Positions 31,223 to 42,404 of a stretch of 43,423 bases of DNA are shown here, one piece after another. The translations under genes and the position numbers were made by a program. Within the stretch, counting starts at the first letter, position 1; every line of letters begins with the position of its first letter. The stretch is from Planctomycetaceae bacterium (lineage in GTDB: Bacteria > Planctomycetota > Planctomycetia > Planctomycetales > Planctomycetaceae), in assembly GCA_041742495.1 (NCBI GenBank), contig JBGSIP010000227.1, forward strand, positions 1 to 43,423. Reading direction: 5' to 3'. The notes beneath the pieces were generated by a model that was given only the letters and a program-made list of their open reading frames with translations, made no database searches and was not told where the DNA came from.

Positions 31223-31250
31223 TTGACAAGTCTATCACGGGCCGATAGAC
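31223..31250 (+). promoter_or_regulatory. Candidate promoter -35 box plus palindromic operator upstream of the HTH gene
   Basis: TTGACA (31223-31228) is immediately followed by a perfect inverted repeat GTCTATC (31230-31236) / GATAGAC (31244-31250) with a 7-nt spacer. It lies about 30 nt upstream of ATG 31279. Confidence 0.4.
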
Positions 31251-31278
31251 CCTACTGCAAGCAAAAGGAGCACCCCGA

Positions 31279-31575
31279 ATGCCATTTGAGCGATCCCTGG
31301 AGATCGAACGCCGCCTTGACGATGTACTCCGCCTGATTCGCACTGGGCGGTTTTCAACGCCCATGCTGGCTGAAGAAGTGGGCGTCTCGATCCCGACGAT
31401 TTCCCGATGCGTCACGGCTTTGCGGCTGAGGGGGCACGATATCCGGGCCGAAAAGAACGAAGAGGGATGGCGCTACGTGATTGCTGGAAAGAAAAATCCG
31501 GAAACGAAACGGGCAGTGGATGCCAAAACGAAAAGTCCGTCAACGGCTTCCAAACTGAGCGGCCACGATGACTGA
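31279..31575 (+). CDS. Small winged-helix/HTH transcriptional regulator (HTH_11/DeoR-like)
   Basis: 'FSTPMLAEEVGVSIPTISRCVTALRLRGHDI' is an HTH pattern. The 3' end overlaps the SNF2 gene start by 8 nt (ATGACTGA). Confidence 0.7.
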   Translation: MPFERSLEIERRLDDVLRLIRTGRFSTPMLAEEVGVSIPTISRCVTALRLRGHDIRAEKNEEGWRYVIAGKKNPETKRAVDAKTKSPSTASKLSGHDD

Positions 31576-40700: not shown

Positions 40701-41055
40701 GAGCAAAGGACGCGGTGTCGGATTCTTTGAGGCAGGCAATTTCCACCCCGACTTCATTCTCTGGCTCCTCATCGGCGGTAAACAGCACGTAATCTTTGTG
40801 GACCCCAAAGGCATTCGGAATATCGGGGCAACCGACCCAAAGATTCAGTTCTTCCAAACCATCAAAGAGATCGAGACCCGGCTCGGCGACTCGAACGTCA
40901 ATCTGCATTCGTTCATTGTCTCGAACACCCCGTCGCACACCATGCGAATGTTGTGGTCTCTGGACAAGCCGGCGATGACTGCTCGGCACATTCTGTTTCA
41001 GGAGGAGGATCACGAAACGTATGTACGCTCGATGTTGGAGCAGGTTGCCACATGA
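37777..41055 (+). CDS. Type III Res-like SF2 helicase (1092 aa) with a C-terminal PD-(D/E)xK nuclease motif
   Basis: Walker A '[12 protein letters not shown]', DExH '[10 protein letters not shown]', motif VI '[11 protein letters not shown]'. The C-terminal '[10 protein letters not shown]...HVIFVDPKG' gives PD...DxK. The start overlaps the Mod stop (TAATG). Confidence 0.8.
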
Positions 41056-41093
41056 CATTTGAGTTCTCACATCATGAAAAAACATAGCGGGCA

Positions 41094-42404
41094 ATGACCA
41101 TGCAGATTCACGCCATTACAGACCTCCTCTCCCATGCCGGGTTTGCCGCACCCGATCTGCGCGTGCTGAATCCTAACCACGAGAACTACACGGCTCTCCT
41201 ACTTCAGCCTCAGGGCGAGATTGAAGCTGACGCAAATGGAGTACGCAATGCCGACCAGGAACTGGCACGAAAGCAATACTCAGCATTCTTAGCCGATGCA
41301 GTTGCAGAACAAGCCGCCATCGCTATTACTCCCGAATATTCAATGCCTTGGCAGGTATTCGAGGACTCCCTTCGGAACGGGGTTGTGCCAGCCCCTGGCT
41401 CGCTATGGGTGGTGGGCTGTGAAAGTGTGACCTTAGAACAACTCGGAGCGTTTAGAGACAGGGTGTCTGATATCGCCACTGTCCTCTACGAAACTCTTGC
41501 TCCGCAACCAGGGCGGTTTCTCGATCCCGTTGTATATGTTTTCTCTTCCAGGCCCGCACAGGGTGGTGATAATCTTCAGCTTGTGATTGTTGTGCAATTC
41601 AAGACATCGCCAATGGGAGACGCAGGGCATTTCGAGATAAACGGCCTTCAGACTGGAACCCGCATCTACTCCTTTGGAAACGGTACAACCCAGCTACGTC
41701 TTGCGACCCTAATCTGTTCCGACGCTTTCGCATTTCTGGATGAGCACGCGGCTGAACTCTATCATCGTACCCTGCTCATTCATATTCAACTCAACAAATC
41801 ACCCAGACAGGCCCAATATCGCCAGTATCGCGCGAAGTTCATGCAATACGATGGCGATGAGACGGAAGTGCTTTGCCTCAATTGGGCCAAAGACGTAATT
41901 GAACGGAGCGGTGACCAAAAGACGTGTTGGAACAACATTTCTGGCTCCGCGTGGTACCTCCGCCCCGACAAGTATGATGACAGTGACACGACGCTAGCCG
42001 AGAATCACAAACACGGATTGTATTATACTTGGCTTCATGACCTGCGGTGCCGTGCGTTGTTTTTCACTTATATCCCGGCAGTATTCGCAATCACGGCATC
42101 AAAGGTGGCCCACCACGGAGTCACTGCGTCAGTATCTCGCCGCCGGGGTCCAATTCTTACATCTACCCGTGTGTGGGACGACGCTTCAGCGAGTTGGATC
42201 GTGCCAACCACCGTCAATGACGGCTTTGCCGCAATCGTAGGAGAATGTGGTGACGCCGCCGCAGATATTCAAGCACTTGCCAGCACAAAGCCATTCTGTG
42301 CAGAGCGAACCTTGGCTCTATGCGCCGGTCAAATTGTCGTTCGCGGTCAGAAACAGGGCCAATTTCGCGGCGAGAATAGGGCCACGTTGTGGGTTGCGAC
42401 TTGA
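41094..42404 (+). CDS. 436-aa protein with an N-terminal carbon-nitrogen hydrolase (nitrilase superfamily)-like Glu-Lys-Cys pattern; function unknown
   Basis: E81 in 'AIAITPEYSMP', K170 in 'VIVVQFKTSP', C208 in 'LATLICSDAFAF', with nitrilase-like spacing. The ORF itself is solid, but the family assignment is by-eye motif inference only. Its stop lies about 5 nt before the presumed IS21 end. Confidence 0.5.
   Translation: MTMQIHAITDLLSHAGFAAPDLRVLNPNHENYTALLLQPQGEIEADANGVRNADQELARKQYSAFLADAVAEQAAIAITPEYSMPWQVFEDSLRNGVVPAPGSLWVVGCESVTLEQLGAFRDRVSDIATVLYETLAPQPGRFLDPVVYVFSSRPAQGGDNLQLVIVVQFKTSPMGDAGHFEINGLQTGTRIYSFGNGTTQLRLATLICSDAFAFLDEHAAELYHRTLLIHIQLNKSPRQAQYRQYRAKFMQYDGDETEVLCLNWAKDVIERSGDQKTCWNNISGSAWYLRPDKYDDSDTTLAENHKHGLYYTWLHDLRCRALFFTYIPAVFAITASKVAHHGVTASVSRRRGPILTSTRVWDDASASWIVPTTVNDGFAAIVGECGDAAADIQALASTKPFCAERTLALCAGQIVVRGQKQGQFRGENRATLWVAT

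Follow-up and report, generated by a model that had tools for sequence, protein, structure and literature searches.

The question raised by this locus is whether five tightly packed genes at the end of a mobile element make up one defence system or more than one. The genes lie at 31223-42404 of a 43,423-nucleotide (nt) stretch from a Planctomycetaceae bacterium (contig JBGSIP010000227.1, assembly GCA_041742495.1; this whole stretch is called the window here), and an initial annotation, made from the sequence alone, had proposed a single five-gene system with a type III-like restriction-modification (R-M) core. Our analysis indicates that the five open reading frames (ORFs) are two modules, an intact one at 31223-41055 and another, at 41094-42404, truncated by an insertion sequence (IS). 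The former is a type III-like R-M cassette accompanied by a dedicated SNF2 ATPase and, optionally, by a controller, an arrangement that is very widespread but that we have not found named as a system. As a whole, we consider it probable that 31223-41055 is an intact, self-regulated three-enzyme R-M cassette carried as cargo by a conjugative element, and that gene 5 is the remnant of a separate Lamassu-like pair.

The six-frame ORF coordinates bear out the compact arrangement that had been described for the five same-strand genes. Genes 1 and 2 overlap in the sequence ATGACTGA at 31568-31575, as confirmed by reading, genes 2 and 3 are separated by 39 nt, genes 3 and 4 overlap in a TAATG at 37775-37779, and 38 nt lie between genes 4 and 5. 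Position 31223, formerly taken as the start of the operon, is not the start of a gene but that of a promoter hexamer, TTGACA, with gene 1 beginning at 31279.

Within the cassette, gene 3 is indeed the beta-class, type III-like DNA methyltransferase (Mod) of 1095 amino acids (aa) that had been read in it, with DPPY (residue 505) before FPGSGTT (800); an NPP[YFW] motif was sought in the protein and none was found. It matches Pfam N6_N4_Mtase (7.1e-24) and, over most of its length, the 1057-position PADLOC profile MTase_III (3.9e-192), all its strong PADLOC matches being to MTase_III or MTase_II, whilst its core finds the solved type III Mods 6k0w, 7dsu and 4zcf at 1.8e-29 to 2.1e-22. Since it has DPPY and matches adenine-specific Mods, the predicted product of the enzyme is likely to be N6-adenine. 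As in type III R-M systems (EcoP15I/StyLTI), the target-recognition domain would lie between motif IV (DPPY) and motif I (FxGxG), and in an alignment with 107 homologues the identity to the window Mod is 0.13-0.34 in residues 540-780 versus 0.58-0.86 in residues 1-210 and 301-390, the C-terminal ~280 residues being conserved again. This low identity between conserved flanks points to a specificity domain under exchange, as expected of an R-M methylase, and its position is also that of the kilobase with the lowest GC content in the region (36001-37000, 0.481). On the other hand, the protein differs from canonical type III Mods in its extensions on both sides, which make it far longer than the 644 aa of the EcoP15I Mod chain (4zcf_A). 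These extensions (about 480 aa N-terminal and 270 aa C-terminal) are themselves conserved, and a domain search with them gave no known domain.

As in type III systems, the mod gene lies directly 5' of, and overlaps, a gene whose product is an SF2 ATPase carrying a PD-(D/E)xK motif in its C-terminal part, and such a start/stop overlap of mod and res is the type III layout. The product of this gene 4, a giant Res, matches Pfam ResIII (1e-10, residues 166-331) and, along most of the protein, the 1154-position PADLOC profile REase_III (3.7e-219), with weak matches to PbeA models as well. Its motifs are GSGKT (194), DEGH (296), SAT (327), QLFGRGVR (607), PDF (991) and DPK (1009). Among relatives as distant as 42% identity, no variation is seen in the helicase motifs or in P991-D992-F993, and conservation is at least 90% for D1009 and K1011, so that the assignment of gene 4 as a helicase-nuclease is a sound one. 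The PADLOC models thus label both proteins as type III, and by these profiles genes 3 and 4 would score as a type III R-M pair. Type III enzymes as such require two unmethylated sites in inverse orientation for ATP-dependent cleavage, and methylate a single strand of their site. As for viruses, the only phage record with a gene 4 relative is that of Thermus phage phiLo (MH673673.1, 18039-20507; 40% identity over 77% of the query), where its annotation reads putative type III restriction subunit R.

What sets this cassette apart from type III R-M is a dedicated SNF2 ATPase, encoded by gene 2, plus a controller helix-turn-helix (HTH) protein in some loci. The full SNF2 motif set announced for gene 2 is present (GLGKT at 62, DEAH at 158, TAT at 190 and QRIGRCHR at 534), Pfam recognizes SNF2-rel_dom (1.2e-33) and Helicase_C, and the best relative of solved structure is RapA. 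Residues 645-960, a family-specific C-terminal region of ~300 aa, gave no match to Pfam families.

The association of this ATPase with Mod and Res was followed through neighbourhood comparisons, whose loci are designated by L-numbers. A first scan, anchored on Res and restricted to one genome per species, yielded 255 stretches with gene 4 relatives, the best 80 of which (69-87% identity) come from more than 15 phylum-level groups, including Planctomycetota, several Pseudomonadota classes, Chlorobiaceae, Acidobacteriota, Nitrospira, Spirochaetia, Synechococcus, Gemmatimonadota, Latescibacterota, Ignavibacteriota and Rhodothermales; the Res family as a whole comprises at least 7991 protein clusters. 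Mod adjoins Res in 57 of the 58 loci with at least 5 kb of upstream sequence, and a full-length gene 2 homologue (53-85% identity) occurs in 44 of the 57 with at least 8 kb upstream. A second scan was anchored on SNF2 and covered 80 metagenome loci with gene 2 relatives 68-82% identical: here Mod follows SNF2 wherever at least 1 kb is available downstream (69/69), and Res wherever there are at least 9 kb (29/29). The extra SNF2 partner that had been suggested for the Mod/Res pair is therefore upheld, and this SNF2 subfamily, judged by its gene neighbourhoods, is tied to Mod-Res in every case examined. In the remaining Res-anchored loci, the neighbours of Mod-Res are housekeeping genes (AcrB, EamA, radical SAM) in some cases and other defence genes (NACHT-FGE, GmrSD) in others, and short gene 2 remnants are kept in L054 and L072. 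By Res similarity, these SNF2-less loci are interspersed among the SNF2-bearing ones, and because their nearest Res relatives usually come from SNF2-bearing loci, the SNF2 gene has apparently been lost repeatedly and its absence does not define a separate lineage. As about a quarter of the Mod-Res loci have lost it, neither methylation nor basic toxicity control is likely to depend on the SNF2 protein.

The same partnership extends to more divergent enzymes. In about a dozen SNF2-anchored loci, the SNF2 protein is ~70% identical to that of the window and Mod and Res only ~40%, which indicates an SNF2 partner common to two Mod/Res clades. To the more distant of these clades belongs a cassette on the E. 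coli IncF plasmid NZ_CP018955.1 (L166), which has the same overlaps and encodes an HTH protein of 81 aa, an SNF2-related protein of 987 aa, a DNA methyltransferase of 1046 aa and a DEAD/DEAH helicase of 1120 aa, this Res being 38% identical to gene 4. Near-full-length gene 4 relatives were found on 25 plasmids, those listed including 13 from Klebsiella, Raoultella, Citrobacter and E. coli, whilst the whole plasmid-type cassette is present in only 2 of 5426 complete E. coli genomes and some match to it in 157. Moreover, the same SNF2 subfamily (44-46% identity, full length) is paired with a Mod of 569-641 aa and a Res of 994-1006 aa, that is, with type III enzymes of canonical size, in L168/169, L170, L173 and L175, and the Res of L168 matches the NCBIfam type III endonuclease model PRK15483 at 1.5e-104. 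SNF2-assisted type III systems would therefore be a broader group than the giant family.

Several variations on the cassette were also observed in these surveys. The slot that separates Mod from SNF2 or from Res is filled in many cassettes (L003-L007, L016, L028, L045, L049, L050, L168, L173 and L175) by unrelated defence-type genes, such as those for Fic/SoFic, a YhcG-DUF1016 PDDEXK protein, an AAA_21 ATPase (PADLOC HEC-01A), GmrSD_N, HNH_2, PLDc_2, PDDEXK_3 and a 23S_rRNA_IVP protein; the window cassette has none. In two Chlorobiaceae loci (L064 and L066), a protein of ~960-995 aa with NACHT and FGE-sulfatase domains takes the usual position of SNF2, directly 5' of Mod. In L072, a single ORF of 2123 aa (3675-10046) fuses ~1000 residues that have no Pfam match to Mod, with a 32-aa SNF2 remnant at 6599-6694; this fusion could be an artefact of assembly or ORF calling, or a degraded SNF2 gene. 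Finally, a 298-bp piece of the Res gene (nt 8324-8621 of the L166 cassette) is found with 99.7% identity on listed E. coli plasmids under the annotation 'DUF1158', and the pieces of this kind, present in about 155 E. coli genomes, resemble leftovers from earlier cassettes.

Gene 5, for its part, is not the whole gene it had been taken for. Its family comprises 409 protein clusters, almost all of 579-584 aa, and the window copy aligns to these ~580-aa relatives over residues 3-415 only (77% identity to the homologue P0005, BLASTP), that is, up to about nt 42336. Because this break in homology lies ~120 nt before the stop of a minus-strand istB, gene 5 is concluded to have been cut by an IS21-family element. 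DNA similarity to plasmids gave one weak istB match only for the IS boundary, which accordingly rests on the protein-homology break. At the sequence level, gene 5 had no match in Pfam, PADLOC or NCBIfam, nor among the sequences of solved structures, and a scan of viral contigs with its family returned nothing. In any case, the nitrilase-like Glu-Lys-Cys layout that had been noticed holds well, since PE (80-81), K170 and C208-S-D are present, with E, K and C invariant in 34 sequences, and since the fold prediction for the homologue agrees with it. The AlphaFold2 (AF2) model of full-length P0005 (mean pLDDT 82.2, pTM 0.85) has an N-terminal alpha/beta domain and a separate helical/beta C-terminal domain, at ~residues 375-580, which is mostly lost from the window copy. 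All 40 Foldseek matches of this model with E <= 0.001 belong to the CN-hydrolase/nitrilase superfamily (best 2.7e-06, target TM-scores up to 0.51), among them the AmiF formamidase, an aliphatic amidase, the glutaminase domain of NAD synthetase and CJ1056C.

In full-length form, this gene is one half of a pair, as its homologue was followed by an SMC_N/AAA_23 ATPase of 1015-1032 aa, with an overlap of 1 or 4 bp, in 10 out of 10 contexts examined. Two of these ATPases were scanned and matched PADLOC LmuB models at 1.4e-31 and 7e-34, which are modest scores (about 108-116 bits), and no NCBIfam anti-phage model was matched above its cut-off by either the CN-hydrolase or the SMC proteins. The SMC partner (e.g. 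L001, 11737-14817) also carries an N-terminal extension of ~190 residues before Walker A, the Pfam and PADLOC matches beginning at about residue 194. DefenseFinder lists a 'Lamassu-Amidase' subtype, which may or may not be the gene 5 family. The likeness to Lamassu lies in the two-gene organization, with an effector made of a catalytic N-terminal and a separate C-terminal domain and a long SMC ATPase overlapping it by a few bases; the differences are the weak LmuB matches, the lack of a PADLOC LmuA match to gene 5, the CN-hydrolase fold of the effector and, in the window copy, the missing C-terminal domain and ATPase, the place of the latter being taken by the IS and the window end. In Lamassu, the C-terminal domain of LmuA anchors the effector to LmuB, and DNA ends switch the complex on (10.1101/2025.06.23.660979). 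As the IS cut removes the C-terminal domain of gene 5 and separates it from its ATPase partner, the pair in the window is, to judge by its sequence, most likely dead. The coordinates of all these elements are collected in Table 1.

Table 1. Features of the cassette, the truncated gene 5 and the adjoining insertion sequence, in window coordinates.
Feature	Position	Strand	Description
-35-like hexamer TTGACA	31223..31228	+	Sequence read; a generic sigma-70 scan made no call there
Candidate operator, perfect palindrome GTCTATC-N7-GATAGAC	31230..31250	.	Between the -35 hexamer and the ribosome-binding site
Gene 1	31279..31575	+	98 aa, winged-HTH (wHTH) controller; stop overlaps the SNF2 start codon
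Gene 2	31568..34450	+	960 aa, RapA/DrmD-like SNF2 ATPase
Gene 3	34490..37777	+	1095 aa, beta-class DNA methyltransferase (Mod)
Hypervariable target-recognition region of Mod	36107..36829	+	aa ~540-780, between DPPY and FPGSGTT
Gene 4	37777..41055	+	1092 aa, DExH SF2 ATPase with C-terminal PD-(D/E)xK-type motif (giant Res)
Putative nuclease catalytic motif PDF...VDPKG	40747..40809	+	aa 991-1011 of gene 4; activity inferred from the motif
Gene 5 ORF	41094..42404	+	436 aa, truncated CN-hydrolase-fold protein
Gene 5, homologous part	41094..42335	+	N-terminal ~414 aa of a ~580-aa protein; CN-hydrolase fold, E81/K170/C208 triad
Gene 5, tail	42336..42404	+	21 codons, non-homologous, from the inserted element; junction at about 42335/42336 inferred
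IS21-family insertion end	42336..43423	-	istB 42455-43357, Pfam IstB_IS21 3.1e-55; continues past the window end

At the other end of the cassette, the region upstream of gene 1 suggests how its expression may be set. TTGACA is followed, after one base, by the palindrome GTCTATC-N7-GATAGAC, and this layout was compared with that of five other loci bearing gene 1-type HTH genes (L009, L027, L048, L168 and L171). Hexamer and operator recur in L009, L027, L168 and L171 with identical arms and differing 7-nt spacers (the hexamer being TTGACT in L027), and in L048 the arms show a symmetric double change, CTCTATC...GATAGAG, with TTGACA kept. Arms that stay conserved around a free spacer, together with the compensating change in both of them, suggest the operator of a dimeric repressor, and the palindrome at 31230-31250 is the likely binding site of the gene 1 protein. 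As its right arm coincides with the expected position of the -10 element, we infer a promoter autoregulated in the manner of controller (C) proteins, a regime that would suit a restriction system establishing itself after conjugative transfer. In R-M systems with C proteins, too, a small HTH gene comes first in the operon and a palindromic operator overlaps its own promoter; the HTH family differs, being here an HTH_11-like wHTH whose binding is predicted, and C proteins have classically been described for type II systems. Generic scans of 30900-42500 for sigma-70 promoters and terminators gave counts at chance level.

The gene 1 protein itself matches Pfam HTH_11 at 6e-05 with 23.3 bits, slightly below the 25-bit cut-off, and homologues with 52-64% identity lie directly 5' of the SNF2 gene in L009, L027, L048 and L168/169. 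A jackhmmer search of the small ORFs 5' of SNF2 genes recovered only three homologues among 112 loci, and the idea of a universal HTH controller was rejected on these grounds. Elsewhere, the same position holds unrelated small DNA-binding ORFs (Phd/YefM-like, excisionase-type HTH or ribbon-helix-helix, by reading of the sequences without a database match) or none at all, which argues that the regulator is a replaceable accessory.

Taken together, these data suggest the following mode of action. The wHTH protein would bind the GTCTATC-N7-GATAGAC operator over its own promoter and set the expression of the operon, as controllers do in other R-M systems. The hypervariable central domain of Mod would read a short DNA target, and the enzyme would mark host DNA at it, whilst the gene 4 protein, translationally coupled to Mod, would act as the restriction subunit, using ATP on unmethylated DNA and cutting it. 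Finally, the SNF2 ATPase would serve as an auxiliary DNA motor, making restriction stronger or broader, as DrmD, ArmA and BrxHII may be taken to suggest.

Several observations weigh against this picture. Methylation, cleavage, protection, the SNF2 role and operator binding are all deduced from sequence and context, and the role of an auxiliary motor for SNF2 is pure analogy. The absence of the SNF2 gene from 13 of the 57 Res-anchored loci implies that 'integral subunit' may be too strong a term for it, and the gene 1-type HTH is restricted to a few loci. The most serious points concern gene 4, for which the proposed likeness to type III Res stood as regards the SF2 and PD...DPK motifs but failed as regards homology. 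Neither its single sequence nor a profile built from 15 relatives, the most distant at 42% identity, matched any solved structure by sequence, and it does not match PRK15483, the model that four canonical Res proteins match at 1.5e-104. When the giant Res was compared with these four by hhalign, only motifs II-III were aligned, with 46% probability, so that its membership of the canonical Res family was rejected. The AF2 model of gene 4 is poor (mean pLDDT 49.6, from a shallow alignment of 76-93% identity), the nuclease fold is thus supported at the level of motifs only, and the Foldseek matches of the model, which were generic SF2 ATPases with E > 0.01 in all cases, were discarded. The label 'Res-like' accordingly holds for the architecture of the protein and not for detectable homology, and, as the giant Res shows no such homology, the type III-like mechanism rests on domain order and gene position. 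Moreover, since the CN-hydrolase/SMC pair recurs 3' of SNF2-type III cassettes, as detailed below, some functional coupling between both modules, for example through the sensing of restriction-made ends, is possible.

A different question is that of the beneficiary, because the cassette could serve the conjugative element that carries it, through addiction and stabilisation or the exclusion of rival plasmids, and not the protection of the host against phages; we regard this as a tentative possibility. The mobile context that had been proposed was found in all its parts: a protein of 1950 aa (25181-31033), with methylase (DUF6094, Eco57I) and SNF2/helicase domains and DarB-like by its domain content (Pfam), precedes the cassette, genes for a TraG/VirD4-type coupling protein, a TrwC relaxase, a tyrosine integrase and a serine recombinase lie further upstream, and the IS21 istB follows. 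The lower GC content attributed to the cassette was likewise borne out (0.546, versus 0.605 for 16000-31033), with values of 0.590 for bases 1-31222, 0.530 for gene 5 and 0.658 for the IS end. The same methylase and SNF2-helicase gene also precedes the cassette in L027, L048 and L087, with 63-87% identity, which indicates that the cassette is a recurrent cargo at the same position of one mobile-element family. An element-serving role would also fit the ArdC genes upstream in L171 and L175 and the relatives on conjugative IncF plasmids, but many other loci are chromosomal and flanked by housekeeping or other defence genes. In any case, the biochemical mechanism would be identical, and the question affects who benefits from the cassette and not its identity as an R-M system.

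As for the element itself, a megablast of the whole region against plasmids gave a single 358-bp match at 76%, and a close annotated relative is therefore lacking among plasmids. On its minus strand, a phage tail-collar domain protein (9093-11465) and a beta-helix, NosD-like protein (13839-15113) adjoin the tyrosine integrase (7804-9006), and a porin gene lies between these two genes and the relaxase. The presence of tail-collar, NosD-like and porin genes among integrase and relaxase indicates that the so-called conjugative backbone is a mosaic.

As regards mechanism, the three enzymes might instead work in the fashion of DISARM or ARMADA, with a methylase that marks self and a surveillance complex of SNF2 and helicase-nuclease that attacks unmethylated DNA, without a Mod2Res1 holoenzyme or a two-site collision rule, an alternative that we hold to be rather unlikely. 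Its appeal comes from the SNF2 protein, whose closest named family is the DrmD of DISARM (PADLOC DrmD 6.8e-198), followed by BrxHII (PADLOC, 7.1e-56). The NCBIfam model DISARM_DrmD_b is matched with 667 bits, below its cut-off of 950, and over residues 28-665 only, the C-terminus being different. Like DISARM class I, the cassette unites an SNF2 ATPase nearest to DrmD with an adenine methylase plus a large helicase, and its setting is that of a defence island or mobile element. ARMADA is composed of a YprA-like helicase-nuclease, a PglX-like methyltransferase and a BrxHII-like SNF2 protein (10.1101/2025.09.15.676423), and its SNF2 ATPase, ArmA, is essential for defence (10.1101/2025.09.15.676423; 10.1101/2025.09.22.677730). 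The three roles of SNF2 motor, methylase and helicase-nuclease are thus those of ARMADA types I and II, and both the missing homology of the giant Res to canonical Res and the conserved Mod extensions without a known domain would be in keeping with such a machine, as would a PLD gene (PLDc_2) seen between SNF2 and Mod, in L175 only. However, two of the three proteins come from other families than those of ARMADA, no ArmD is present and only the SNF2 protein is comparable. The methyltransferase is not PglX-like, as its motifs are in the beta-class order and NPPY/W is missing, and its core matches solved type III Mods. Pfam and PADLOC gave no match among the five proteins to a YprA-type DrmA, to DUF1998/DrmB or to a PLD protein (DrmC), in agreement with the first assessment, in which DrmB and DrmC had not been seen, and the locus is not DISARM; BREX is also disfavoured, as had been noted, because PglZ, BrxC and BrxL are not found among the PADLOC families listed for the five proteins (best 25 per protein). 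Moreover, the start/stop overlap of mod and res follows the type III layout, the same SNF2 subfamily pairs with a bona fide type III Res (that of L168), and Mod-Res persists without SNF2 in almost a quarter of the loci.

The single system of the initial annotation would survive in a modified form if the five genes and the lost SMC ATPase were coupled, the cassette making or exposing DNA ends that the CN-hydrolase/SMC pair would sense to launch a second-line response. The activation of Lamassu complexes by DNA ends (10.1101/2025.06.23.660979) speaks for this model, and so do the contexts of the pair. In L168/169, a gene 1-like HTH (52%), SNF2 (45%, full length), HNH, a Mod of 617 aa and a Res of 1000 aa (RE_endonuc) are followed after 11 nt by the pair, and in L170, L173 and L175 the order is SNF2-Mod-Res, with zero or one slot gene, and then the pair after 5-11 nt. 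The window included, five of nine informative contexts thus have the pair directly 3' of an SNF2-Mod-Res cassette, on the same strand and 6-38 nt downstream, the other four cassettes, with the pair 6-12 nt downstream, being type III of canonical size. In a sixth context (L171/172), ArdC, HTH_11, SNF2 and a Mod gene come within 2 kb after the pair, and in a seventh (L001) the pair lies 11 nt 3' of a BREX system. However, L002 and L176 have the pair without any R-M neighbour (L174 ends too close to it, at a contig edge), the family of gene 5 is far smaller than that of Res (409 versus at least 7991 protein clusters), the IS has broken the pair in the window while leaving the cassette intact, and none of the 160 loci fetched by the two giant-cassette scans contains a gene 5 relative. 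On balance, this coupled model seems unlikely to us, and gene 5 is better described as the truncated first gene of a separate pair than as the fifth gene of one system. That gene 5 is a random neighbour, a view held at first, was revised in turn when the pair was seen to recur 3' of SNF2 and canonical type III cassettes. Thus, of the two neighbours that had been put to a neighbourhood test, the SNF2 gene keeps its link to Mod/Res, whereas gene 5 is not a subunit of the cassette and yet stands beside it non-randomly. From these gene contexts, we conclude that the pair, instead of being a subunit of the giant cassette, is a self-contained module that preferentially occupies the 3' end of modification-based systems. 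A two-tier strategy, in which SNF2-Mod-Res would cut unmodified DNA and the SMC ATPase would sense ends or failed restriction and release the CN-hydrolase effector against something other than DNA, for instance a metabolite or cofactor containing an amide, would explain this repeated siting; separately, the SNF2 motor would be a new general accessory of type III-like restriction in hundreds of species. We consider this reading just as doubtful, and put it forward as speculation.

Lastly, it is very improbable that SNF2 stands alone, as a single-gene element or a regulator that merely shares a hotspot with a two-gene type III-like R-M system, because, despite the loci that lack it and the unrelated defence genes (Fic, GmrSD, HNH, PLD, YhcG) often found between SNF2 and Mod, the SNF2-anchored loci with enough downstream sequence contain Mod (69/69) and Res (29/29) without exception, the linkage holds over two Mod/Res clades (~40% identity) and canonical type III pairs, and the overlap of the controller gene with the SNF2 start codon makes SNF2 the first enzyme gene of the operon.

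A last point to be addressed is what this cassette would mean for the family it belongs to. The novelty once suggested for the locus has to be qualified, since no paper was found in the literature that describes the SNF2-Mod-Res trio or the CN-hydrolase/SMC pair, but PADLOC MTase_III and REase_III already match genes 3 and 4. In practical terms, the window would be read as one intact restriction cassette next to one IS-inactivated remnant. The CN-hydrolase and SMC pair to which the remnant belonged would be a Lamassu-like module that lacks a name, uses an unusual effector and markedly prefers a site behind modification-based systems, and the conserved promoter-operator offers a way to approach how such cassettes become active once transferred. 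If the SNF2 protein does work with Mod and Res, a common and horizontally mobile family now filed as ordinary 'type III R-M' would in fact be a three-enzyme machine, and the cassette would join DISARM, ARMADA and BREX type 3 as a methylation-based defence that recruits an SNF2 motor, with a methylase and a nuclease from different families. This would bear on what SNF2 proteins do in such defences, a matter that the homologous cassette on IncF plasmids of E. coli and Klebsiella makes directly testable.

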